Below, in pieces: positions 8,416 through 44,369 of a stretch of DNA of 64,000 nt (position 1 is its first letter; each line of letters opens with the position of its first letter). Both the position numbers and the translations under genes were made by a program. The stretch is from contig JALDZX010000039.1 in assembly GCA_022813865.1 (NCBI GenBank), positions 62,001-126,000 on the forward strand, read 5' to 3'. The notes under the pieces are model-generated. The model did no database searches. It was not told where the DNA came from and worked only from the letters and a program-made list of their open reading frames with translations. The DNA is from Xylographa opegraphella (Eukaryota).

Positions 8416-8772
8416 CTATAACGGCTGCAAGTCTCGTTCCTTGGCGCCGTCCCGAAACAACTTCCCAGCCTCCGTTTCAAGTTGGTACGTCCCATCAGGA
8501 TTCACCTTCTTAACAATGAACGGGCCCTGTAAGCCCCGCGCCATCTTCAGGTACACCTGCTGGCCTTTGTCGTAAAGCGTCATTTTCTAAACATGTATGA
8601 GACTGAGTTTCCAGTAGTTGCTACGGGACATTGGGCATACCATGGCGGGATTGGGCCGAGAGCGAACATGAGCGCGGAATTCAGGACCGGACTGCTCATT
8701 CGTCTCGCCCTCGCTCTCTGGCCGCGCGGGCTCGGAGTGGATTTGGGCCTCATCAGCCTGGCTTGCGTCCAT
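8416..8772 (-). CDS. Small (100 aa) hypothetical protein with a C-terminal SH3/Tudor-like beta-barrel pattern
   Basis: Exons 8772-8641 and 8586-8416 (intron GTATGC..TTTAG). Exon 2 reads KMTLYDKGQQVYLKMARGLQGPFIVKKVNPDGTYQLETEAGKLFRDGAKERDLQPL*. Confidence 0.6.
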
Positions 8773-9410
8773 CGTTGCTTCGGGTTTCTGTGGAGGCTCA
8801 GCGTTGGTCTCACCCAGATAGGGATAGGATAGCGATGGGGTTATCGTACTTCAGCACTGTGATTCTGCTCGCTCATAGTGAATATTCCGATCTCTGTCAC
8901 ACTGAATGACCGGGAAATCCGAATGATTTTATCAAACAATGATCAAGTCCGACGCCGAGATAACCACAGTCATTTATATGATCCGGGTGCTGCTGTTTCG
9001 GACCCCACTTCTTTGGTGAGGCTACGGATGCTGCATGTCATCCCCACGCAAAGAGGCTGTGTAACTGGGCGGCTGTGCTTCTTCATAGTAGCACTTCATG
9101 ACAAACCGAGATACTGTGTTTACCGGCCATGACATAGTTCGTGAGCTGCTCGTCGAGCAGCAAGTGGTAGACGGGGCTGACTGTAAGCGGTCTCCTTGCA
9201 AATGGCTCCCGGGTGCTTAAAGTATCGAAAGTGACACGCCTAAGAACCACCGATCGTATACATGTCAGTGAAAGCAAGGCGAAACACCAGACTGCCTGAA
9301 GGCTCTGATTTATGATCAAGGCCAAATCCGTTCAGGCTCTGTGACGGTCTCACAAACAGTCCCTTGGGATCCAATCCTACACATTACGGAACAGCAGCCT
9401 TCGCAGTTCA

Positions 9411-11117
9411 TTATACTTCTTCGCCATTAATGTCTAGATACGGTCGCCACACTCCCGATGCATAGAATATACTACAAATGCTTACTGCAATGGAAAGCCA
9501 GAAGACTATCGTCCTTGCCAACGTCTGTTTCTTGCTATCTGCAATCCCTGTCTGTGTCATGGGCGAGAGCGCATGCTGTCGCTTGTGGTCCCCTTTATTC
9601 GTCAATGGTGGAGTGCCACCGAACTTACCTGTATATAACTTTGTCACCAGCGCTGGTAGTCCAGATGTAAGGTGTCTGGGCCGGCTAAATTCCAAGGACC
9701 ATGCAAAAGAAAAGTACTTCGAAAAGCTGTGCAACTTCAGTTCCGGAGGACGCTCAAATGGTGCTCGCAATTCTTTGTCCGGACTGCAAGGGGCCACTTT
9801 ACCCGTGGCCATATTCACCGGCAGCTTCGATCCGTCTCGGAGGATGGCTTCCGCATCACTCCAGTCTGGAGTTTGAAAATGGTGCGTAGCAACGTTAACG
9901 CGAAGACTTGGTCGCCGTCCTTCCGCATGGCTCGTCTCCTGTAATTCCTTTGCCAGTGCCTTTCGTTGCAGCCGGAGCCGGATTATTTTAATAAACTTTT
10001 TGATATGCATTGCCTTGCGCATGCAATAAAAAAACTCTTGAATTTCTTCAGCAGGTGCATGCAATTTTTCAAACTTGATTTCATCGACGTGGGGAAGATA
10101 TTGGAGGGCTCTGGCAAGCTCGTTGATTTTCGCAGGATCGGGCAACTCCGTCAAACGCAACGTCAAGTCGATAGTGACATGATGTTTGTCGCTAGGAGAA
10201 ACTGGCTCAGACAAAATCTTCAGCGGTCTCAGCCATATTTTACCGAAATCGAAATCAGATTGGTCAAACAGGAACGGTTTGATATCGTCTTTGGTCTGAT
10301 GGTATATGCGCCGGTATAATTCCGAGGTCGGAAACCCTTTAAGATACTTTGCTTGCGAAAGAACAGCCTCTAGTGTATCGCACAGTCGACGAGTGAAGGA
10401 GTCATTATGCTTGGCCGATGGGACTAGTTTGTCCGGTGGTGCTGATGCCATGAGCTCATACTTTCGCCTCCCCAGACCCTGGTTGTCAAAGGCGCAAGCG
10501 GCATAGCAGCAGTCGACAATGAGGAGGATGTCCGTATGCGGAAGTCGGAGACAGCTGAAAGTATCATTGAAGAAGGCCTTCGGATCTCCTTCACCGTCAG
10601 CTTCAAATTTGCTACCCATTGATGTGAGTATAAACAGCTTCATTACAAGGAGACAATTTTGACTAACGCAGCCAACTTAAACTGCTGGGTTTCGCTGCCT
10701 TTATAGCCATGGCCCCCGTAATACACTATCATCAGATTATCAGGACTGTTGTATTCATTCGCAAAATTTGTTACGGCGGCGAGCAATGCTGTGTCAGACT
10801 TGTTCGGGGGAATTTGAAAATGCTGTGTTTCGAAGTTGAACCGGTTTTCAAAGATTGCCTGTAATCGATCCACCTTTTTGATAAGTTAGTATGCAGCGGG
10901 TTGCAGTACAGGCAGTCCCACTCACCTCCGATTTCTTGAGATTCATATCATCGTTTTCCCAGGTAATGAGTAGCACACCCACGCGCGTGTACCCCGAAGG
11001 TCCGTTACGGTAATGGCCTGCAATTGTTTTATTGAAAATGAACCGCGCATCGTCCTTGCTTCTGCCGAAAGCCGTGCGGTGGGCTGGAGCTTCGATATGG
11101 AAATCGAGGGACGCCAT
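9411..11117 (-). CDS. Caspase-like (peptidase C14-type) protease with a C-terminal TM anchor, about 532 aa
   Basis: Exons 11117-10926, 10873-10668 and 10611-9411 join in frame (1599 nt). GYTRVGVLLITWENDD, catalytic His in LMIVYYGGHG, Cys in DILLIVDCCYAA, then ELMASA..SFTRRL. Hydrophobic IVFWLSIAVSICSIFYASGVW near the C-terminus. Confidence 0.85.
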
Positions 11118-12188
11118 ACGGGCTCATTGGTCCCGAGAACGACTGCCAGCGCAGAGGGATGAGTGCTGGATCGGTCATGGAGCTGGTTGATGAATGTCTA
11201 GCAAATCGGACTCTTTCAGCTCGTTAAGCCAAGCCTGGTCGGCCGCACCGCTTTTGTCGCCGCAATTGCATAATCTTGCATAAAGTTTATCCTTAGATCG
11301 AAATGTGGTTGAGTGCTTCCGCGCTAGGATGCTTCAGTCCCCGAGCCGCAATCATGTACACAGTACCTCAAGCCAAATCAAAGGCACGCGAGAAACACGT
11401 AGCCAGATGTTGCTGAGGGTTGTGCCCTAGCGAACTCAGAGAAAACCGTTATGATGGTGTTTATCTAGGATACGAACTATGAGTTCCTTATCCAGGTGAA
11501 TTCTGAAGCCCTATAGCACATTTCCACGATCGGGTTCCCGCCGTGTGAAATACATGGGATTTCGAGAACCCCGTATCAGGGCCGTACGTTTCATGGTCGA
11601 CGGTTGTTTTGATATCGAACTAGTACTTCAAGCAGGTCATGGTCCGAGAAGTGGACTGCTTGGTCTTATATACTGCCACCTTACTTAGACCACTCCGACC
11701 CCAACTTCGGATCATAGAAATAGTAGCTTCCTTCCGTCCCCTAACTCCTAGCAAAAAGCGAGCAGCGCAGTCCTTCGCATCAGGCGCTCGCGTTCGATGC
11801 AAGTCCGAAGAGAACTCGTCGAGAACTAAATGGCGCTAATTCTAGGTCAAGTATAGGGAATCGAGCGTTGCTGTAAGAGAAGTGCATCTGGAGTGCACTG
11901 GGACTGTAAAGCAAATAGTTGCACTGTCAGTTGGAAGATTGGAAATAACAGTCGCAGCATGGACGTATGTTGTCGAGCACCCCTATTAGAGCACTGTTCT
12001 TCTTCGAAACCTTCGAGTGCTTCGAGCTCTTCGGGCACTTTGTGAACACGTGCTGGAAAAGATTCTGCATCCGCGTGTTACAAGCCCGCTATTTGTCGAA
12101 GGGAATGGTCTTTGAAGATTCCTCCGGAAGATTTACGCTGCCACTGACCTCTCCATTATGATGTGACGGAGGGAACCAGTCTCGAATC

Positions 12189-19822: not shown

Positions 19823-20722
19823 TGTGGGATGGGGGTGTGGGTGTCTCAGGGTTTTGGGAAGATGAGGCGGTATTGTAGGTATGTGGTAAAAGATGCTGAG
19901 CACAAGTACCGTTGAAGGTGATTGAGAATATGAAGACTGCGGACGAATTGGATTCTGTTAGCAGGACATATATATCACATTGAATGAACCGGTTTATATA
20001 TCTTCGCCGGCTCTCCTGCTGCTCGGATGTCCAGAGGACGGTCCGAGAGAGCAGCGACGGCGCATTGCTGGAGTTTCCGTGCCCATGGAGCTATGGGACG
20101 GGACCCCAGTCTTGCAGATGATATCACCACCGTATCGCGGGCCTTTCGGTTCTTCTCCTGCTTTCGATTGAAGGTTGGAGATTTGGCCTTGATGGGTACG
20201 GAACTGCTCGTCTTCCGGGACACTTGGCACGCTAGCTTTTGGAATGGCCGACCTTTCCTGTCTAGCGTTAGCGTCATTCGCCACTCGGAAGGACGTTCTG
20301 TGCGCTTTCCGAGTGGCCGTACTGTGGTACCTATCAACTATCTGTGCGGAGTGAGGTATCTACCCTACCCGGGTACTCTACTGGACAATCTGCGCCAGTT
20401 GAGAATGGATCTGGGTATCACGAAGGGCTGTGCCAGATTGGACGTGCTAATGATTACTCGGCCGCTTGGTATCTCCTCCGCCAATGTCTGGAGAGGTTAG
20501 TACCGTCCTCTTTTTGCAGCATGCGATTGGTCGCCTCAGGCAGACAGACATGCGCCTCCATTTGTGGGGCCTGGCACAAGGCTGGAGACCTCAATCCACT
20601 GCTGCATGTTGAGACTATTATACGGTGATTGAATTATGTATGATCGGTTTCTTGCCTTGTATTTCCTATTCATCTCGTTTTAAATTGGTTATCCATTTCT
20701 GATGTGAATTACCACAAGCAAA

Positions 20723-22939
20723 ATGCCGAAGCTACCCAATATCTGGTACTGTGGATGGTATGCTCATGGCCCTATGACTGTTGGCTTGGACGAATACTGT
20801 GTATGTCCTTCTTGCCAGAAACTTCGAGATAATTATGCGAGGTATCGAAACGAAATATTGAAATCAACAGAACTAAAGAGTGACAAGTCGAATGTGCCAC
20901 GATATCATGATTTGGTTTCACGTCCTCGGCGGGTTTGGACGATTGCCAGAGGCTCGTCCAATGAGGTTACTTTGACGACAGGTATTGGGAATCCATCAAA
21001 TGCAACAAATTCTATCACCAACCCGGTTTGTTGGTACTGTAGCCATTGTCAACATGGTCCTATGACTGATATAGATACATATTGTTACAACTGCGGAGCA
21101 AACAGCGGCAAGTTCTTAAAGCCCTTGAATGCAACATTTGATACTAGTGCTGAAAGTCCATCGGGTTCGTCTGCAACAGCAGCCGAAGGACAAAATGGGA
21201 CTCAATCGAACCTTTCTCCCGACATTTACCATACTTACAACACTTCGAATCAAACTCGGACTGGCCCTGAAATTGAAAACTTCAAGGGAAACGACATATC
21301 GATATCACCGCGGTCTGCTGACCTCCCTGACTCCGGCCTGCGATATCAAGTTGAACGCGGAATTTCTCAATTCGTCCGCAGTCGACAAACCAAAGTATCT
21401 AACAAGAATGTGGAAGACGACCCCTCAGGCGATGCGGTGGTAACTCCAATTTCAGAGGGTATGGTTTTAGCAAGGCGTGGTGAAAGAGACAGTTACGTGA
21501 GAACTCCGAGAGCGTACGAGCAAGATGTTTCTGCAAGGAAGACGCTTATTGAAATGCAAAATCCAACTCACATAGCCCACGAAAACATTGGGTCTCAAAA
21601 ACACTCAAACATATTGGAATCCAGTGGACAATTCGAGGAAAGCTGTGAACCTTTCACTGCTAAGCATGTTGAAGATATTATATATCATGATACACTTGAC
21701 CCATTTTCCTCTCCATCGCAGCACTCCCAGAGTTCCGAAACTAAGTTGACTGTTACATCAACGAGCAAAAGGCCATCCTTGACAGCCGAGGGTGTCAAAT
21801 TGGCTACTGCAAATAGGGGAGTCTCGCACTTAGGAGAAACTCAAAAAGCATTGAGCGAGAGTAAGTCGAAGACCGGCTCAGATGATGTAAAGCGCAATCG
21901 TTACGAGACGCTGCGACGGCACTGGAGTACGTGGTGCCGACCAAGCATTCGGCCAAGGTACCAAAGAATTGAGTGGACTTGTGTAAGTACGAAACGCTTC
22001 AGTAGAATAGCGAGACTGATTCATGCTAGGATTGTGGGGAGTTCCTTTATGGTGATTTTGAAACAAGCGACCAAGAAGGATTATCCAGGCTGGCGGCCAG
22101 ACTACGTAACCCTGGGCAAGCTGAAGCCGACGAGACGACTCACCAGCAGCCAATCGCCCCACCCCCAGCACCGTCGCCTGTTTCCGCCCAAAGTGATGGG
22201 CAAGTAAGGAAAAAGCACACGGCGGCCACAACGGTCAAGACTTTCAAAGGAAGCCGTTAGCGTAGGATGCAATATGGCCTTGCACCCTGAACCAGGTATC
22301 CCAAAGTTTGTTGAAGTTTGTGTCAACACGGGCAAATGGCACCGAAGCTTAGGAGAAGTGAATATCACCGATGTTAACTGCGACCGCGATCTGTTTGCAT
22401 TGATCAAACAACGCTATGATGAGGTTCGCGGCCACCGGACCAAGCTCTTCTTCCTCGAGCCGGTCAAGGTGGAATGGGTACAGTTCTCTCTCGAAGAGAG
22501 GCATCAAGTCGGTATCATGCTGCATCCGATGGCTGTTCCTCCCAAAAACGAGGTCGATAATCAAAACTACGACAACGCGCCGTGTCCGCTGGAACCACTG
22601 CCTCCTATCCCGGATAACGTCTTCATGCACCACCTACATAATCCAGGCCTGCATCGTCGTCCGATCTGGTTACGCCGTCTTCCCAAGAAGATGAACCACA
22701 GTCTCCTCAATTCAAACGAGGAGCTTGTCACTGGGTGGGGACTGCATATCATCGAGGGACCAAAGTGGAAGGCTATCTGGACTGTCGCTATTTGCCTCTT
22801 GTTTATCAGTGGTGTCGTTTCCACGCTGTGAGCTATTCTCCGCAATGATGTTTCTGGGGGCTTCGGCATTGGGAGCTGGCTAGTGAGTGCTTCGGCGTTG
22901 GGAATGATGGCCTATTTCAGCAAATGTAGTCAGGAGTGA
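20723..22939 (+). pseudogene. Paralog of the 4312-5378 family with N-terminal Cys/His motifs; frameshift at about 22207-22260 and premature TGA at 22829
   Basis: YQRIEWTC|DCGEFLYGDF across intron 21983-22029. That frame stops at 22258-22260, while the conserved part FVEVCVNTG...PPIPDNVFMHHL...RRLPKK...GWGLHIIEG is in another frame. The TM region reads VVSTL*AILRNDVSGGFGIGSWLV...QE*. Confidence 0.65.
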
Positions 22940-35651: not shown

Positions 35652-36767
35652 ATGGCAGCGTCTAAGTCACCCAACCCTGCTGGGCAGAAGAAGCCGAAGA
35701 GAGAACGTCAGGTCCACTTACCCGAAGATGTCGACCCAGTCCGCAATGGCTACGATGACAGTGTGTGCTATCTGGCAAGCTCTCTAGACAAACACACCAT
35801 TAAGCAGCACATGCGACGGTGCAATAAAACCCACGTCCAGATGAGCAAACCGCGTAAACCAGCAAGATCATCCACCGTCATCGTTGATCTCGAGGAAAGT
35901 GGTTCGGAGCTGGAGAGGGCCTATGCTGCGGTCGAAGCCGCCAAAGCGCCTAAAATTCTAGAACCCGCTCGGCAGAAGAAGGCGAAGAAATCCCGCGTGA
36001 ACCATCCATCTGAAGGTTCGAAGGTGACAGTCGACCTAGTGGATAGTTGTATCTGCGACCTAGTTGATTCAGATGACAGTTCACGGAAGAATGGTTGGGA
36101 GTGGTGCGATGTGCGTGACCTGCTGCGAGGTATACCATGCAAATCCATACGAATTTTCGAACGCAAAAAAGCGCCGTCGTCAAGAGAGGTCGTTGACTAT
36201 GAAGAAAGTGATACAGAGTCGTCGATGGATCGGGATGTCAGTGTAAGGAAATTTCCAGTGTCAGTATCAGGAAGGTCAATAAATAAGAAGGAGGTGCAAG
36301 GGAAGAAACGGAAGCTTGAGGGCAATATCTCGAAGCCGGATTCGCAAGGGAAGAAACGAAAGCTTGAGGCAAACATTCCGAAGCCTGATCCGCTTAGGGC
36401 GCAACGGAAGTCCGAAGCAAACATCCCGAAGACGGACTCACCAGGGAAGAAACGGAAGCTTGAGGGTCAGAACATCCCGAAGCCGAATCCGCAAGAAAAG
36501 AAACGGAAGTCTGAAGCAAAAGCCGCGGAACCAGGTTTGCAAGGAGAAGTCGCAGGCCTTACTCGACGACACAAACCATCCGCTACTGTGGCCAAACCAC
36601 CAAAAACATTCACCTACGATCCTCGCACCCTCGCCTCCGACATCCTTCGTGCCGCTGGCAAACATCCAACCTTGCCTCCGCTGAACTGGGAACTGATGAA
36701 ACTGGATGCCAAGGTCAAAGCCAAAGCATCTCGCCATGCGGAAAGCCTTGGTAGGAAGCTGTACTAG
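35652..36767 (+). CDS. Lys-rich hypothetical, probably nuclear, protein with internal peptide repeats
   Basis: Uninterrupted 371-aa ORF with repeated GKKRKLE.NI.KPD units and a C-terminal YDPRTLASDILRAAGKHPTLPPLN motif. Confidence 0.65.
   Translation: MAASKSPNPAGQKKPKRERQVHLPEDVDPVRNGYDDSVCYLASSLDKHTIKQHMRRCNKTHVQMSKPRKPARSSTVIVDLEESGSELERAYAAVEAAKAPKILEPARQKKAKKSRVNHPSEGSKVTVDLVDSCICDLVDSDDSSRKNGWEWCDVRDLLRGIPCKSIRIFERKKAPSSREVVDYEESDTESSMDRDVSVRKFPVSVSGRSINKKEVQGKKRKLEGNISKPDSQGKKRKLEANIPKPDPLRAQRKSEANIPKTDSPGKKRKLEGQNIPKPNPQEKKRKSEAKAAEPGLQGEVAGLTRRHKPSATVAKPPKTFTYDPRTLASDILRAAGKHPTLPPLNWELMKLDAKVKAKASRHAESLGRKLY
36295..36520 (+). repeat. Imperfect coding tandem repeat, about 48-bp unit, about 5 copies
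   Basis: Recurring CAAGGGAAGAAACGGAAGCTTGAGG..AACAT.CCGAAGCCGGA.TC encoding QGKKRKLE(G/A)NI(S/P)KPDS variants. Confidence 0.8.
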
Positions 36768-38044
36768 AGCTTCAGCTGGCTACCGCTTTGGAGGTCGATG
36801 ATGATGGCTCTGATCTGCTCATGGAGAGTCCATCAACATCGACATCTGGCCCCGCTTCTCCACTCTCAAATCTTCCTAGATGGATCCGGGCATAATGTTC
36901 TCTGCTTTTTAGACCTGGTTGGGCGATTTTGTTTTGGTCTACGGACCCGGTGCATGCAATTGTGGAGTGCTGGTAGTGCTATTCTGCCTCCTTGCTTCAG
37001 AGCTTCTGGTCATACCTTGCGAAAGTGCACTTTGTAGCTAGCACAGAAGAACCTTTGCACAATAATAAAGAATATTTTCAATGCTCCGAGCCCACGAGTA
37101 GACCACCCAAGCATCTCTCCACCCAGGCACCCAAACATCTCTCTACCTAGGCACCTAGGCTTTCTTCCTCCCATACCGACCTTCCGCTTTGATGATCTGT
37201 AAAAGCGTATGTGGCAGGGCACGGCCTGTCCAACGAAGTCGCGACGCAGACCGACGTTTCAGAAAAACGGCCAAAACTTACATGTTCATGAGACCGATCC
37301 AGCATAACAGCCATCATGCACCCTACCCTCCGTCAGCAAGTCCCGTTGCCTCGTAACCGCCCTCTCGTCCGCCCACCCTCCAAGTCGCACCACAGGACCC
37401 GACAGTCCAAACCCATACCGATGTTACTCCCCCCGAGTACTCCCCACCCACCACCACCATCCCACCATCCCTCCCTCCCCCAACTCCCCTCCCCATCCTC
37501 CAAACCCGCCTCGCCCTCCCCCCAAGTGAGCGCCGAGCATCCCAGAATGCCATCCCTTGGGGCACAAAGCCCTCAAAGAAGGCCATATACAGCATCAACT
37601 GCGAGGAAGCCCGGATGCCATTGCGCGAAAGCAGGCGAGCACTTTTCTGACAGGGCTGACGCCGTTGCAGGCGGCCAGGTTTCGAAGATGATGGTAGGTC
37701 TTGGGCGCTGGGAGTGTGTGTTCGGGTTTTGTGATGCTATTTGGTGGGATATTGATAACATGGATGGGATTTGCTTTGGTGGTGGAATTGTGATGTTTGG
37801 ATAGGGTTATTTGTGTAAAGGTGATATGTGTAGAGGTGATATGTGTAGAGGTCAGGAGCCAAGAGACAGCTACGAACAAGAGCTCGTGTTCCACGACTGC
37901 TTGCGCGTCACCAGTTCAAAGATTCGGAAACCTATGCTGAAGAAGGTACGTAAAGAAGGATACACGTAGATCAGAAACAGTTATGAATGCTACGAGAAGT
38001 CGATAAACGATTGGTATAAAGAAGAACCATCCCACCTAGTATCC

Positions 38045-41000
38045 TCAATTCGCGAAGCACACCCAGCTCGCCCAGTCCATCGGCTTCCACATATTCCCCT
38101 CCCCTCTCCAATCACATACGGCACGATGCAATGCCCTTGGAAAGACATCCGCATCCGGCTCATCCTGTCCCACCTTCCACTCCTTCGCTACCTGGGCATA
38201 GAAGCCAGCCGCGATTTCCAGCGCACTCGCCTGATACGCCTGCCATAGCGTGCCAATCACAGTGGGGAATCCGGCTAGGAGAAAGGCCTTGGCGAGATGG
38301 GTGATCTCGTCCGTCTCGTTGGCTTGAGGATCGATGGCAGAGTGGCAAGCGGAGAGGAAGAGAAGTAGCGGATTCGCGATGTCCATCTCTCGGATCTGCG
38401 CGACCGTGCACGGGTCTTTGTCGTCGCGAAGAAGGACCAGTCTGCTCTTGGACGGATCGATGGGGTGTGGGAGCCCGTGGCAGGTGAAATGGACGATGCG
38501 TGCCCAATGCATCATGTCGCGCGCCACGCCGAGATTGCACCTGTTGATGGTGTTTTTGGTGAACGACTCTCCAAGACTTGCACAGATACGTCGATTTTCC
38601 TCTGCGACGGCCAGGTCGACAAGTTTACCTTCAGGGACATCGGGCGAGGTGGACATTCCAAAGAGTGTGAAATCGCGATTGGCGTTGCGGTAGTACCGGA
38701 TCGACGGTTTGCGTTGCTGTGAAGCCATACTGGCGCGAATTGATGATAGATAGGATGACACAGCATGTTGGTCCATGTAGTCGCTCGACTCTTCAGAGTA
38801 TATCCCAGCGGCGTGGATCGGTAGCTGACTGAAAACACCACATGCAACCCATTTGATGCGTGGTAGGTTAGTGCTTCGCTTTTTGAGATTGAGGAACTGG
38901 ACAATCGGTTTACCGACTGTCTTCCATAACCATGTGAGCATTGAGCGAAGTTTCTCGTTAGCCATTCCCTTTTGGGCTTCGTGACGTTGACAGGTTTCTA
39001 TTGCGTTCCTGAGCACAGAAGTGCGAGTAAGGAGCTGCTCATGGGTACAACGATGGAGTTGTAGCTTCTGGAAGCCATCACAAGTGGTGACGAGCGCATA
39101 AGTGCCAAGTCTTGAGGCGATCAAATGGATAATATAGCTATTACGGGCTTCCCACATACATCGTTGCTGGCTGAAAGGTTGAGCAAGAATTCCAACGTCG
39201 ACGATTTCTTTCACGAGCCTGATGAGGTCCATAGACTTATTTGCAAATTTCTCACCTATGGAAATATTGTCTTCATAGTCAGCTGTAGGCTGCTTTTGAA
39301 GCTGGCTTCGAATAAGCCGAATCTGAGGTAATAGCTCTTGTTCAGGGTCAAATGCATAGCTTCTTACTGTATTCATTCCATGGCGACTGCCCAGCTCCCT
39401 ACCATTTTCAAGCGCAAGGATGGATGTCCAAGGATCTCGACCTCGTGTCAGCCAAATACATGCTATCGTGATGGCAAGATTTGATGCATGAGACAGTTCA
39501 GACAAGTATTCATCAGGCTCCAGTAGGAAGAGTTCCAAATGCCCCAAAATTACTGCCGCCATGTCCGCAAGCTCCAAGGCAGTCTCAAGGTCATCCAGTA
39601 CGATAAACTCGGTGAGAGCTCTCTGATAAGTCTCAGCACGTTTGAGCGACGCGCCTGCACGCCAGTAGAGTCTGTTCCACGTGCTCCATATAATCGTCGT
39701 CTCTGGCCTTCCTGGGTCAAGCTTTAATAGTAGCTCGTCAATCCGTAGGTCGAACCGAAAGAGCACACACTGAGTGTGCTCAGCAGATGTAACAATATCT
39801 GAGTCCTGAATTCTTGGTGTGTCGGTTGAGAGTTGCAGGTCGTAAAGGTAAGATCCTCTCGGTGGCACGGCTTGCTGTGACTAATTATTAAATGACCCTA
39901 TATTTAGTGCACTAGAGGTGCATTTGCTCCTGGCAAGAGGAGCAAATGCATCGTTTTCCCCCACATGATCAGATCGAAAGCGATTACGAAACTCTCTCAA
40001 ATACGGCATCCACATAGGTAAGTGACTTGAGCGACGAAAAAAGTTTTCAATCTGCAAAGGATTCGCTTTATTCAAGCTTCGTATCTGCTCGATTAACGCT
40101 TGGTAGAGCTTGAAGAGTAACTGAGGTTTTTTAATACTCCATCCATGAGTACCTTGGATGCTCATTCGTAAGGCCACGACAGCTACTGCGAGATCTTGTG
40201 AATCTCGAGCGCTTGCATAACGAGAAAGAAGCACGTCTGCGCTGGTTTCCAAAGTTTGCACAACCCAGCGCTGATAACGTCGCTGTGTTATCCGTGACTG
40301 ATTACTAGAAGGAGTCATACCAGATATAACAACATTATTGGATAGTGTGTTGCCTGTGCTATTGCCCGTAATCCTGATCCCACTAAGACTTTTGGAGATC
40401 CCAGTTCGCGTGAGCAGAGTGTCTGACAAATTCAGGGCGAAGATAATAAGCTGGACTGCTAACGGTAACGAGTCTGGAAGTGAAGTGCCTAGGTAGACTT
40501 GCAAGCCTGTACTAGCAGCATTATTGAAGCACAATAGCCTTCCAGGGTCTATCTCTTTGATCCCTGAAATAGCATTCGAGGCATACACCATGGCCATATG
40601 CAGGTGCTTTTTAGCATTCCGAACTCGACCTCTCTGCCGAATGAAAGTCTGACAATGAATTTGAGATGAAAGTTCAAGTGCAACGGGATAGAATGAGCCG
40701 CGGCTAGGAGTTACCCCGGTATTCTCGACTTCCCAGGTTCGGCCTTGAATTACCTGATTTATATACTCAATAGCAACATCCGACTCATCTGGCTGGTCTT
40801 CAAACCGGGAGAAAAGCGAAGTCCGTGCAGCCTGCTTGGTATACGACTGAAATCGGCATTCTGAAGACATGGAACCAATCAGCAAGACAGCCTGCGTGTT
40901 GAGCGCTAGAGCGTCGTCAAGATCTCCGGTTCTTCCAAAATATATGTAGCGCGTCATGTACAGGTTTCCAAGGTTATCAGCTGTATATCTTGCTTCTGCG

Positions 41001-41461
41001 TTGTTATTGCGTAAATTAGCCCAGGCTTGTTTTGCATATGCGATGGATGCATTTAATGTATTGAGATATTCATAATCCCAAAAATCATCTTCCAAACGAG
41101 CAGATAAGTTGCGCATAATACAGTAATAGTCCTTTTGTGTGGCTAAGTACCACGCACGGTGTGTATCATTAGGTTGACATCGATCCACGGCAGGGTTCAC
41201 TCTTGAGCCGATGATCCTCAACAGCTCCCGGTCTCGCTTTTTATCGGCGTTTGTCTTCTGCCATGTGATGAAGAGGCAGTTCGCAAGGCAACAAGAGCAT
41301 ACTGAGAACAGTGGTGATGTCACCGGTAGCACTTGTAGCAGATTTTGGCCAAGTATAATGGCTTGCGCTGTGTTCTCCGAGTTTTTGTTTGCGTTTAAAG
41401 TGCGATAGGCGCCTATAAAGCGATCGATATGATCTTCCGAGGCTTGCTCCGAAGTAGCCAT
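38045..41461 (-). CDS. Helical-repeat (TPR-like) + CHAT-domain caspase-like protease, interrupted by one in-frame TAG at 39881-39883
   Basis: ORFs 41461-39881 and 39868-38045 are in the same frame, separated only by TAG plus 4 codons. TPR-like NLGNLYMTRY..GRTGDLDDALAL. CHAT motifs LTWLWKTVGKPI, LPRIKWVACGVFSQLPIHAAG, VSSY, catalytic IVHFTCHG and LFLSACHSA, AGFPTVIGTLW, WASWVCF. Confidence 0.88.
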
Positions 41462-42055
41462 CCGTCTTGGACCACTGTCAGAACAAAAAACAAATCAGTG
41501 GCTGGCGGTGGAACAAAGCTGTCATGCGGCTTGCCCTTTCCACACACAATGTCGAAGTCAGATAGGTCTGCACTATCAGAAAGCAGTGCTCTGCGATAGG
41601 ATATTCATAGGTCACTGCTATCAAATTGAGGAGCTGAAGTGGAATAGGCTCAACCCCGCGTTTCGATATTGAACAAACCCCACTAAACCATTGGGGGCGA
41701 AATCGTAACTTTTCATTTTAGTATTTCGAGCAGGATCCCGTTATTCGAACCTGTATTGATTACTTGATGGAAGAGCAAGTATTCGTTAGCGGGTGTAAGT
41801 ATTCTTAAGATAACAGCAATGTCTCAGTGAACTTCATGACGTTGCACAAGTAAAAACCGTTCAGGTTCACAATAGCATATTCAGGAGTAGACACAAAGAG
41901 AATGATCTGGACATGGCAAAGAAGCATCGTTTTGCAAGACCGGATCCTAGATCGGGCCGGTATGTAATACTCATGGTTCGGTACCTACAGCAGATGAAGA
42001 CTTCGTAGATGAAAAGGGCTGTTCGAGTACAGCCTCGTCACCCAGAAAACTGCAT

Positions 42056-42135
42056 CATCAACCAGCTCATCAAACAGCTCATCAAACAGCTCATCAAACA
42101 GCTCATCAAACAGCTCATCAAACAGCTCATCAAAC
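42056..42135 (+). repeat. 12-bp tandem repeat (CATCAAACAGCT) x about 6.7
   Basis: One variant unit (CATCAACCAGCT), five perfect units and a partial CATCAAAC. Confidence 0.95.
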
Positions 42136-42218
42136 TTTGTTCTCATCCACAAGTGAAGATTGGTATTTCAGGCAAGGAAGAACTGACATTCGCAGTGTTA
42201 TAAAGCGACCACATTGTC

Positions 42219-43064
42219 ATGGCTCGAAACCGCGGTCGGTGACTTGCGCAGCCCATGCCACTTCCTAAGGGGACGGTTGTTTGTGGAGACCTGACTCTTG
42301 ATCCGAGTCAGCCCCATAACAATGTTCGTTCATTCCCCAGCAATCTGCCACTTGATGTCCGCTCGACGACTTTCGAGAACGTTCATAATACTCAAAGTTC
42401 TGGATTTGGCGCGGAATTTGGGATTCAGCTGATGACCTTCTTGAATGCGCAAGCTCATGCCCTGCACCTGGATCATGTCAACATCGTTGTTCCGCAAGGC
42501 ACAAAATACCTTGTGCGTAACTCCGAGCCCTCCTTTAAGAAGGCATGCGGTGAGCCAGACGTTCGAGCCTGGCTGAAAGAGCACGTCATAGATGAAGGCC
42601 GGAAGGCGGCAATGCTCGTCGGCATATACACGTACTGTAACGCGTCCTACACCCTCATCCACCAAAACCAGTTGAAGGGGCACCTTTCGGCATCGGACCC
42701 CACAGCCACGGGGAGCGCCAATTTAGGTGCTGGTATTGGCACTCTTGGTCATCAGACGTTCAACAGTCCTGAAGAGCAGATCTTTGCAGTCGAGTATAAG
42801 CCAATCAAGTTCAAACCGTGGTCAAAGAAAAAGATTGAAGAGGCAAAATTGGAGGAAGGCCCAAATCGTTGGGAGGTCTTCTTTGGTGATCGGACCAAAG
42901 GAACCGCAGCAGAGGAGGAGGAGAACATCTTCGAATTCAATTTGGACGACAACGATGACAGCGATGACAGCGATGAGAAAGATGAAGAAGACGTGGACGA
43001 TGAGGCAGGACAGAGCACTACCACATCGATGAAGTTCGAGGGAAGCAACGTTGATGAAGTCTGA
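42219..43064 (+). CDS. Fungal gasdermin-like protein (HET-Q1/RCD-1-like); in-frame TGA at codon 8, alternative ATG at 42255
   Basis: About 270-280 aa. VVCGDLTLDPSQP, DVRAWL, AMLVGIYTYCNA, Gly/Ser-rich predicted beta-hairpins (SSGFGAEFGIQL; GSANLGAGIG), SPEEQIFAVEYKPIKF, NRW, then an acidic tail of about 50 aa. Adjacent to a CHAT protease gene. Confidence 0.75.
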
Positions 43065-44369
43065 AGGAGGTTCGGAGTAATATCAGAAATCAGTCGGTCG
43101 TTGGAGATGACATTAACGTTCTTAGTTCTTAGGCGAGCTGACCCCTAAAAGCTTATTACTGTTAGCTCAAATTCTAGCGTGTGGCCGCCAACGATGGGGA
43201 ACAAATGCGCCTAGAGCTTAGGGGCGTAACAGTGGTCCGGAGACCTAAGGTAGGTATGATAGAAACCTACGTGAATTCAATCGCATTTGCTCTTTCATCT
43301 ACTGAATGAGCTGGTATCACAACTCGCACAACGACAAAGCTCAAGACAAAGTTGGGCTTCAGTATCACCCATCATACGAGAAGATCATTTCTCGAATCCT
43401 GCTGTCTACGAGTCCAGTGGCCGTGAACACATCTGGTCCGGCTGCTCAGAACGAGTCACCTCTCGCATTTCATGCTTATATACAGGTATCAATTGCGCTG
43501 GCTCTCAAGAACGGACATGATACTAGACATCTGCAAAACCCTGTGCTTTTGTGGTATTGCATTCCCGCTGGTCCAGACATCGTATCCCCAATGTTTGCAT
43601 ATCTCAAGCCTCTGGTATACACAGCCAGCTTCGGCATACAAAGCCAATTTCACAAGAATAGAACAATAAATCACACGACGAAGTCCTGAACCAGTATACG
43701 ATTTGCCAGCCACTTTTACTCCGTATAGTAAATTATCAGCGCTTGAATATTCGCCAATGAAGTCGAAATCTCGTCGAGCAAGCCCAACCTTCCCCGTTTG
43801 ATCTTACTCCCAGATTCGTGGAAAATCAAGAATAGCCCTGACCTCAGCCAGCGAGCACGGGCACATTTTCGAGGGTGTTCCATATAGATATACGGAAGAG
43901 GCGCGAGGAGACTGTGAGTGCACCGTGTGGCAGCTACGGAGTCGAAGTTAACGGCCGCAAATATTTTGCGTATTTAGGACTAGTTTCACTAGAACAGGAC
44001 CTAGCGCAGGCACGGACGTAGCCATCGGGGGATCGGGCGGTCATAAACCCGTGCGGAGTACCTGCTCAAAGTACATAGATAATGCCACGCCCCAGCGCCC
44101 CGATGAGCGCTCATCAGGCTCAAACTTGTTTCTTCGGACATCTATCCTCTTGTCGCTCGCGTATCGTATTGAGACCACCCTCCGGTCTACACCCTCCTCC
44201 AGACCGCAACTACCACCACCCCTAAGACCAACGCAGAGCAGAAGGGCTTCAAAGCTAGCATCCCCGCCCGTGTCGCTCGGCCCCAACTACCATCGGTCTT
44301 ACCCTTGCGCTCAAACTGGGGTTTCCGCACACCCAAGCCCCCTTCCCATTACCCAGCCAGCAACCCGCC

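Follow-up and report, generated by a model that had tools for sequence, protein, structure and literature searches.

A 64,000-nucleotide window from the lichen-forming fungus Xylographa opegraphella (contig JALDZX010000039.1, positions 62,001 to 126,000) encodes a het-Q2-like CHAT protease and a gasdermin-like protein in divergent orientation, and each of the two genes is interrupted by one in-frame stop codon. Most probably the pair is an allele that lost its function not long ago, or at best a hypomorphic allele, of a CHAT/gasdermin module for which homology suggests a cell-death mechanism. Clusters of gasdermin and protease genes in fungi are considered an old system of immunity or allorecognition that resembles pyroptosis. 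All positions given below are those of the window.

Structure and identity of the two genes

We found the protease gene (38045-41461, minus strand) and the gasdermin-like gene (42219-43064, plus strand) head-to-head, with their start codons 757 bp apart. The features of the pair are as follows.

38045-41461, minus: het-Q2-like TPR-CHAT protease gene; one frame, 1138 codons long before its terminal stop and broken inside only once, by a TAG
39182-41461, minus: N-terminal helical TPR-like region, which covers codons 1 to about 760 and is presumed to sense or to regulate (AlphaFold2 and Foldseek)
38054-38941, minus: CHAT domain (caspase-like, clan CD), residues 841-1136 (Pfam PF12770, E 1.1e-26)
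38477-38479, minus: His995 in HFTCHG (991-996), predicted catalytic, invariant in 12 of 12 aligned rows
38345-38347, minus: Cys1039 in LSACHS (1036-1041), predicted catalytic, invariant in 12 of 12 aligned rows
39881-39883, minus: in-frame TAG at protease codon 527, in the low-confidence linker 491-563
39875-39964, minus: in-frame segment GTGGGG...TCACAG of 90 nt, codons 500-529, missing from the database protein P0021 as if it were an intron
41462-42218, no strand: intergenic region of 757 bp between the start codons, presumed shared promoter
42063-42134, intergenic: six tandem copies of the 12-nt unit CAGCTCATCAAA, about 85 nt upstream of the ancestral gasdermin ATG
42219-43064, plus: gasdermin-like gene (het-Q1/rcd-1 family), read in the ancestral frame of 281 codons, the eighth of which is TGA
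42240-42242, plus: in-frame TGA at gasdermin codon 8, where 17 of 17 homologues have Arg
42255-42902, plus: gasdermin-fold core (AlphaFold2 and fold matches), counted from a lineage-specific ATG where homologues have Leu or Phe
42885-42902, plus: GDRTKG (part of FGDRTKG) at the core/tail border, candidate cleavage region by conservation
42903-43061, plus: acidic C-terminal tail of 53 residues with the motif ENIFEFNL (223-230), presumed inhibitory peptide

Both genes are real and not chance open reading frames (ORFs), because the small protein has 20 homologues at E ≤ 0.001 (best 7e-181) and the large one has 174; none of the annotated orthologues of either protein carries a functional name. 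An initial annotation, made by a model from the letters of the sequence, had described a helical-repeat and CHAT gene of about 1,138 codons with intact HFTCHG and LSACHS motifs, head-to-head and about 760 bp away from a gene of about 280 amino acids (aa) with gasdermin-like motifs and an acidic C-terminal tail. This description holds for the large gene (a 1138-codon frame with PF12770, a TPR-like fold, and an invariant dyad) and for the spacing. It also holds for the small gene, the predicted fold of which came out as gasdermin in three structure searches and the family profile of which matched RCD-1-1, and for its tail, which has 23 D/E and 2 K/R in the last 53 residues.

The protease is a CHAT protein throughout its family. 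The ORF downstream of the TAG matches PF12770 with 96.1 bits (gathering cut-off 24; E 3.3e-27), and the Pfam CHAT domain is found in all 12 orthologue rows. H995, G996, and C1039 are unchanged across the 12 rows of the protease alignment (A2), and in alignments with solved TPR-CHAT chains of Csx29 (7zoq_A, E 3.6e-6) the His falls on the CHG motif and the Cys on the GAC motif. The catalytic residues of Csx29 are H585 and C627. By these alignments, the His/Cys dyad of the window protease is intact. The upstream ORF of 526 aa, which forms the N-terminus, has no Pfam match, and TPR Pfam models matched none of the 12 orthologue rows. The full-length AlphaFold2 model is weak overall (predicted local distance difference test, pLDDT, 56.6), with confident helix pairs in residues 1-350, more helices up to about residue 760, and a disordered, low-confidence linker at residues 491-563. 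Foldseek against the PDB returned TPR superhelices as the top matches without exception (Ctr9, Ski3, consensus TPR, OGT, and LGN; E 3.8e-6 to 1e-3). These results support a helical-repeat CHAT protein whose repeats are TPR-like by predicted fold. Its orthologues have 1118-1141 aa and 48-80% identity, and the best match is a 1108-aa hypothetical protein of X. opegraphella (P0021) with 97% identity over the alignment.

The small gene reads from ATG 42219 through M-A-R-N-R-G-R to the TGA at 42240-42242, continues with L-A-Q-P to a second ATG at 42255, and is then open to 43064. All 17 homologues start with M-x-R-N-R-G-R-R-L-A or a close variant, and the database copy of the protein begins at the new ATG. 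A product from this ATG would have 269 aa and would be without the 12 basic N-terminal residues. The first helix of mammalian gasdermins is basic, and by analogy the basic N-terminus MARNRGRRLA is a candidate lipid-binding element. An AlphaFold2 model built with 18 orthologues places residues 10-135 and 168-210 at pLDDT 73-91 and leaves a Gly/Ala/Ser-rich stretch (138-167) and the tail (212-269) unmodelled.

Three structure searches with this model led to gasdermins. The top ten Foldseek rows against the PDB were all gasdermins, including RCD-1-2 (8jyy, E 1.1e-4, probability 1.00), the Bradyrhizobium gasdermin (7n50, E 4.8e-4), and the RCD-1 pore (8jyz). Re-alignment with VIA placed gasdermins at ranks 1-22 (Z 8.7 to 5.3; best 8jyy_G, root-mean-square deviation 4.2 over 149 aligned residues), and cholesterol-dependent cytolysins came next (Z ≤ 5.0). 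In a search of 48,161 representative chains that was independent of Foldseek, all 13 chains with Z ≥ 5 were gasdermins, and the next unrelated rows had Z ≤ 4.3. The orthologue profile recruited 615 representatives at E ≤ 1e-3 and 266 at E ≤ 1e-10, mostly of 250-300 aa, and a profile of 99 family members matched RCD-1-1 (E 4.1e-5) and RCD-1-2 (E 0.013) among PDB sequences. A language-model atlas listed unnamed Ascomycota clusters first, and a cluster at rank 19 has Bact_GSDM in 13% of its members, which is a lead only. A word-indexed homologue search with the wide profile added nothing beyond the near orthologues.

Several results weigh against the assignment to gasdermins. The template-modelling (TM) scores of the fold matches are low (0.24-0.47) and the best Z of 8.7 is moderate, so that the fold evidence lies in the exclusivity of the hit lists. 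In the sequence comparisons, the 99-member profile reached the HET-Q1 pore chain 9uv9 with a non-significant E of 3.5, and the 18-orthologue profile alone had no matches among PDB sequences. No curated gasdermin Pfam model matched the window protein or any of the 99 family members, a Pfam scan of which gave a single match (DUF6437, E 0.0029). The comparison with RCD-1, HET-Q1, and bacterial gasdermins that the initial annotation had proposed came out in part as expected, with fold matches to RCD-1 and to bacterial gasdermins, and failed for HET-Q1 at the profile level. Taken together, fold and family profile support the small protein as gasdermin-like.

Conserved pairing and the candidate cleavage region

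Orthologues of the two genes have consecutive locus tags in X. pallens (008359/008360), X. soralifera (003869/003870), and Trapelia coarctata (001163/001164), and the small protein has further orthologues in X. bjoerkii and on several metagenome contigs. Scanning metagenome contigs with the orthologue alignment yielded nine loci, seven of which (L001-L006 and L009) have a CHAT-type gene or gene fragment directly upstream on the opposite strand; the other two have only 1240 and 0 nt of upstream sequence. The upstream partners are listed here.

L001, L002, and L004: protease relative with 61-63% identity
L005: protease relative with 27% identity and a Pfam CHAT match
L006: N-terminal part of the protease only, where the contig ends
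L003: protease fragment
L009: gasdermin relative with 26% identity (L009:5794-6729), head-to-head with a CHAT-NB-ARC/NACHT-TPR-ANK gene (L009:1-5618, minus)

The survey of synteny suggested by the initial annotation thus found the CHAT pairing in seven of nine metagenome loci and in three annotated genomes. At the window locus, the gasdermin homologue lies within 10 kb of a protease gene of the S8/CHAT kinds, and this partner has a repeat/sensor region by its predicted TPR-like fold, with no TPR Pfam match.

Two of the loci surveyed have further features. The pieces of the large L009 gene carry CHAT, NB-ARC/NACHT, TPR, and ankyrin matches, as a partner of the protease-NLR type would, and a second NACHT-ankyrin gene lies downstream (8709-11780, plus). 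In X. bjoerkii, which has a gasdermin orthologue with 72% identity (P0004), no protease of 625-1992 aa was among the 120 matches listed; there the protease gene may be absent, lie in pieces, or have escaped annotation.

Where the core of the small protein meets its tail, G211, R213, K215, and G216 are at least 90% conserved in the 18 gasdermin orthologues. Among the 99 family members, position 213 holds Arg in 85 cases and Lys in 7, Trp stands at 206 in all 99, and Leu stands at 199 in 97. A short variable stretch follows, then an acidic run, then a [VI][VLI]E[AV]xL motif that is conserved across the 99 members and reads ENIFEFNL in the window protein, and then more acidic residues. The core is balanced in charge (22/22), and the acidic excess is confined to the 53-residue tail. 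A cut near FGDRTKG, as the initial annotation had proposed, would fall at the strongly conserved R213, which makes this border a plausible candidate cut region as judged by conservation.

By homology with the Podospora pairs Q2L-6/Q1-6 and HET-Q2/HET-Q1, a trigger acting on the helical TPR-like region would release the CHAT domain, which would cut the gasdermin between the invariant Trp/Arg region (R213) and the hydrophobic-acidic motif of the tail. Such a cut, past the conserved Arg of the linker GDR[ST]KG, would free a core of about 215 residues from an acidic tail of about 55 residues, and the freed core would oligomerise into membrane pores and kill the cell. If HET-Q1 is a guide, the inhibitory element may come directly after the cut site. 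A point on the other side is that the AlphaFold2 model does not dock the tail (pLDDT < 50). A complex prediction of CHAT residues 790-1138 with the 269-aa gasdermin, run with no controls, gave ipSAE scores of 0.01 and 0.00 and counts for neither side.

Premature stops, decay in related lineages, and functional state

Each gene carries one stop codon within its ancestral frame, which bears on function in this genome and not on family membership. At the TAG column of the protease, ten orthologues have Y, Y, N, H, A, T, F, S, H, and S, with Tyr in the two closest species. The initial annotation had touched on the stops by speaking of stop-repaired ORFs; the stops are indeed there, and the remark underplays that both genes are interrupted. 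Because both are, the module is probably not working in this genome. The database protein P0021 avoids the TAG by leaving out exactly the 30 residues encoded by codons 500-529.

Three other accounts of the stops were considered and rejected. The TAG does not lie in an ordinary intron, as the orthologues are collinear and coding across it, and the TGA does not lie in an intron, as the nearby GT...AG stretches are far too short. A candidate for an assembly-wide excess of in-frame stops, two same-frame ORFs (20708-22207 and 22208-22831), proved to meet at a GTAAGG donor (stop at 22205-22207), which is an ordinary intron.

The same pair is decayed in other lineages. Two lesions are common to three of the metagenome loci (L001, L002, and L004): codon 797 of the protease, Gln in homologues, is TAG, and the gasdermin has lost 1 nt, which truncates the protein just before the conserved AKLEDGPNRW stretch. 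L002 has an additional TAA at codon 110. These lesions match truncated proteins in the database (P0035, 796 aa, 15 member sequences; P0017, 210 aa, 7 member sequences). The protease genes of L001 and L004 show no difference in the 3132 nt compared, and between L001:153-3572 and L002:2133-5552, 49 of 3420 nt differ, distributed 20/11/18 by codon position. The even spread and the ratio of 34 non-synonymous to 15 synonymous changes fit neutral drift of a pseudogene. L005 has an in-frame TAA in the gasdermin and a protease frame that is open over the matched part, and L006 has an intact gasdermin. On the 1390-bp contig of L003 (positions 1-900), a frameshifted mid-protease stretch (residues about 523-615) abuts gasdermin codon 58, with a stop near the gasdermin end; the contig is chimeric or else records what a deletion has left of the pair.

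Each orthologous lineage with readable DNA has lesions of its own: TAG and TGA in the window, TAG and a frameshift, followed by a later TAA and a neutral substitution pattern, in L001/L002/L004, TAA in L005, and the putative deletion relic in L003. They hint, tentatively, that the module may be undergoing repeated and independent loss in lichen-forming Ostropomycetidae, often with both partners hit; the recurrence is meant as an observation, not as a statistical excess over the lesion rate of neighbouring genes. If so, null alleles could segregate in the way known from het loci. Another possibility is that selection on pyroptosis-like immunity is relaxed or even reversed under a stable symbiotic lifestyle, and that the safe way to lose the module is to inactivate protease and pore-former together. 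A literature search on CHAT-gasdermin pseudogenes in fungi gave nothing on the decay of such clusters among the matches listed.

A further observation concerns the Trapelia coarctata protease (P0026), which is without 19 residues (A2 columns 175-193) inside the highly conserved stretch YMSRY.YLGR.GDLDDAL. This gene model may conceal a lesion, as the X. opegraphella annotation does.

Some features of the window locus weigh against inactivation and lend themselves to a reading in which the same module still functions, with 39875-39964 spliced out in frame and the gasdermin made from ATG 42255 or by leaky readthrough of TGA-C. The TAG lies in a poorly conserved linker modelled as disordered, inside a 90-nt segment that begins with GT, ends with AG, and is a multiple of three in length, and P0021 is modelled with exactly this removal. 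The new ATG arose four codons past the TGA, at a position where homologues have Leu or Phe. Beyond the stops, neither ORF has decayed further: private changes at otherwise invariant columns number 1 of 49 in the gasdermin and 8 of 286 in the protease, compared with 3-4 of about 281 in each of the two closest species. Of the eight private changes in the protease, three fall no more than ten columns from the TAG, with alignment columns 533 and 539 included in the count. We nevertheless consider a functional module rather unlikely. Ten orthologues code through the 30 skipped codons, which include the nearly invariant P508, L509, and R511, and the donor GTGGGG is a weak fit to GTRAGT, the usual fungal splice donor. 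The 12 N-terminal residues that would be lost (MARNRGRRLAxP) are conserved in 17 of 17 homologues, and the same pair is unambiguously decayed in related lineages.

A different possibility concerns the mechanism, namely that the gasdermin is activated through RCD-1-like antagonistic alleles or by another protease, and that its CHAT neighbour has a different substrate. In its favour, the best sequence and structure matches are to RCD-1 and not to HET-Q1, and binding and cleavage between the partners are steps that we infer here. This reading is improbable given that the head-to-head pairing is strictly conserved down to relatives of 26-38% identity, among them the CHAT-NB-ARC/NACHT-TPR-ANK case, that both partners are lesioned in two independent lineages (the window and L001/L002/L004), and that the tail and the Arg linker are conserved. 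Conserved linkage to a protease gene itself argues against an RCD-1-type allorecognition system, in which two antagonistic and highly divergent haplogroups of the gasdermin gene occur in one species. The TPR-CHAT/gasdermin pair of Podospora also sets a precedent by direct experiment (Clavé et al. 2022, PMC8851545).

Lastly, the stops could be sequencing or assembly errors in genes that are intact in the organism, as a single-base lesion per gene in otherwise clean ORFs would allow. Logan contigs of sequencing run X1 span 38000-42092 and 42106-43100 with 0 differences and contain both stops at a word depth of about 153-163. This re-assembly speaks against an assembly artefact and makes error a very remote prospect, with the limit that X1 is probably the assembly's own source sample and not independent DNA, so that a systematic error in the same reads would recur. 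We read the stops as recent inactivation of both partners, and a spliced or re-initiated form that is still active is the chief rival.

Genomic context and comparison with known systems

The neighbours of the pair in the window are housekeeping genes, encoding a PI3/PI4-kinase with a FATC domain, a fungal transcription factor, an ABC transporter, a protein kinase, an Ulp1 protease, eIF4E, POT1, and a WSC protein; no island is evident around the pair. Adjacent to the protease gene is an ORF for a lysine-rich protein of 371 aa (35652-36767, plus) with repeated GKKRKLE.NIPKP-like units and no Pfam match. In the intergenic region, the re-assembled contigs of run X1 break exactly at the CAGCTCATCAAA repeat, the copy number of which could differ among isolates.

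CHAT/gasdermin clusters are a described kind of fungal locus. According to Clavé et al. 2022 (PMC8851545), 1,187 of 1,884 fungal het-Q1 homologues are near S8 protease genes and 353 (19%) near CHAT-type ones, and many of the partner proteases bear TPR, ANK, or WD40 repeats. The same source describes an experiment in Podospora, in which the CHAT domain (701-1005) of the TPR-CHAT protein Q2L-6 processed the neighbouring gasdermin Q1-6 and produced a barrage (cell-death) reaction. The implied novelty of the pair in the initial annotation does not stand in view of the 353 genes already known next to CHAT genes. Its remark that such pairs are much less studied than the subtilisin type is only partly right, as the kind has been described and tested once. 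A 2025 review (PMC12881547) gives the same account of these clusters, and a HET-Q1 pore structure was reported in 2026 (PMC13475620).

In three supplementary files of Clavé et al. 2022, Xylographa, Trapelia, and Cladonia are absent, and file 3 includes only two Lecanoromycetes genomes, both Lasallia, with 0 gasdermins each. A literature search on gasdermins in lichens returned only lichen-planus and unrelated papers among the matches listed. The Xylographa locus leaves the known principle of gasdermin/protease modules unchanged and extends the CHAT-type cluster to lichen-forming Lecanoromycetes. It also defines a conserved clade in which the candidate cut region and the motif of the tail are clear, and these could guide cleavage mapping. 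If confirmed in populations, the repeated lesions would offer natural data on the dismantling of dangerous death modules made of two parts.

Among solved structures, that of Neurospora crassa RCD-1 is closest to the gasdermin (8jyx, 8jyy, and 8jyz, with a best Z of 8.7 for 8jyy and further matches at Z 7.7 and 7.6) and RCD-1 is the only solved relative reached by profile, although identity in the structural alignment is only 13-14%. RCD-1 kills by co-expression of two antagonistic alleles and is not known to need a protease or to have an acidic tail. Bacterial gasdermins in operons with caspase-like or CHAT proteases (such as those of Runella zeae and Bradyrhizobium; 7n50-7n52) resemble the window protein in size (about 250-270 aa) and in the adjoining protease, and match its fold at Z 6.4-7.1. 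They have a short inhibitory C-terminal peptide where the window protein has its presumed inhibitory tail. Their genes are co-directional, whereas the Xylographa pair is divergent and its gasdermin has a basic N-terminus; bacterial gasdermins are palmitoylated at an N-terminal Cys. For the protease, the closest solved CHAT protein by sequence is Csx29 of type III-E CRISPR (Craspase; 7zoq, 7x8a, and 8d9f; E 3.6e-6), which has the same order of TPR followed by CHAT. Csx29 is bacterial and RNA-guided, and it cleaves Csx30, which is not a gasdermin.

The closest parallels are in Podospora anserina. Q2L-6 (Pa_6_6610) and Q1-6 (Pa_6_6615) likewise are adjacent and combine a TPR-type protease of about 1000-1140 aa bearing a C-terminal CHAT domain with a gasdermin of about 280-300 aa bearing a short C-terminal extension, a likeness drawn from the published description (PMC8851545). 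The Xylographa pair differs in that its repeats are TPR-like by fold only, its host is a lichen-forming Lecanoromycete, and each gene has a stop. HET-Q1, by the same source, loses a C-terminal fragment of about 5 kDa, and its truncations 1-233 and 1-238 are toxic while 1-218, 1-247, and 1-261 are not. The toxic forms end just upstream of the inhibitory stretch, and the Xylographa tail is similarly placed, as 53 residues after a conserved linker. Given the counts of Clavé et al. 2022 and the processing of Q1-6 by Q2L-6 that they showed, the pair belongs to a kind that is known and has been tested once. It is a further case of this established CHAT/gasdermin cluster kind, found in a lichen fungus and probably freshly inactivated there.

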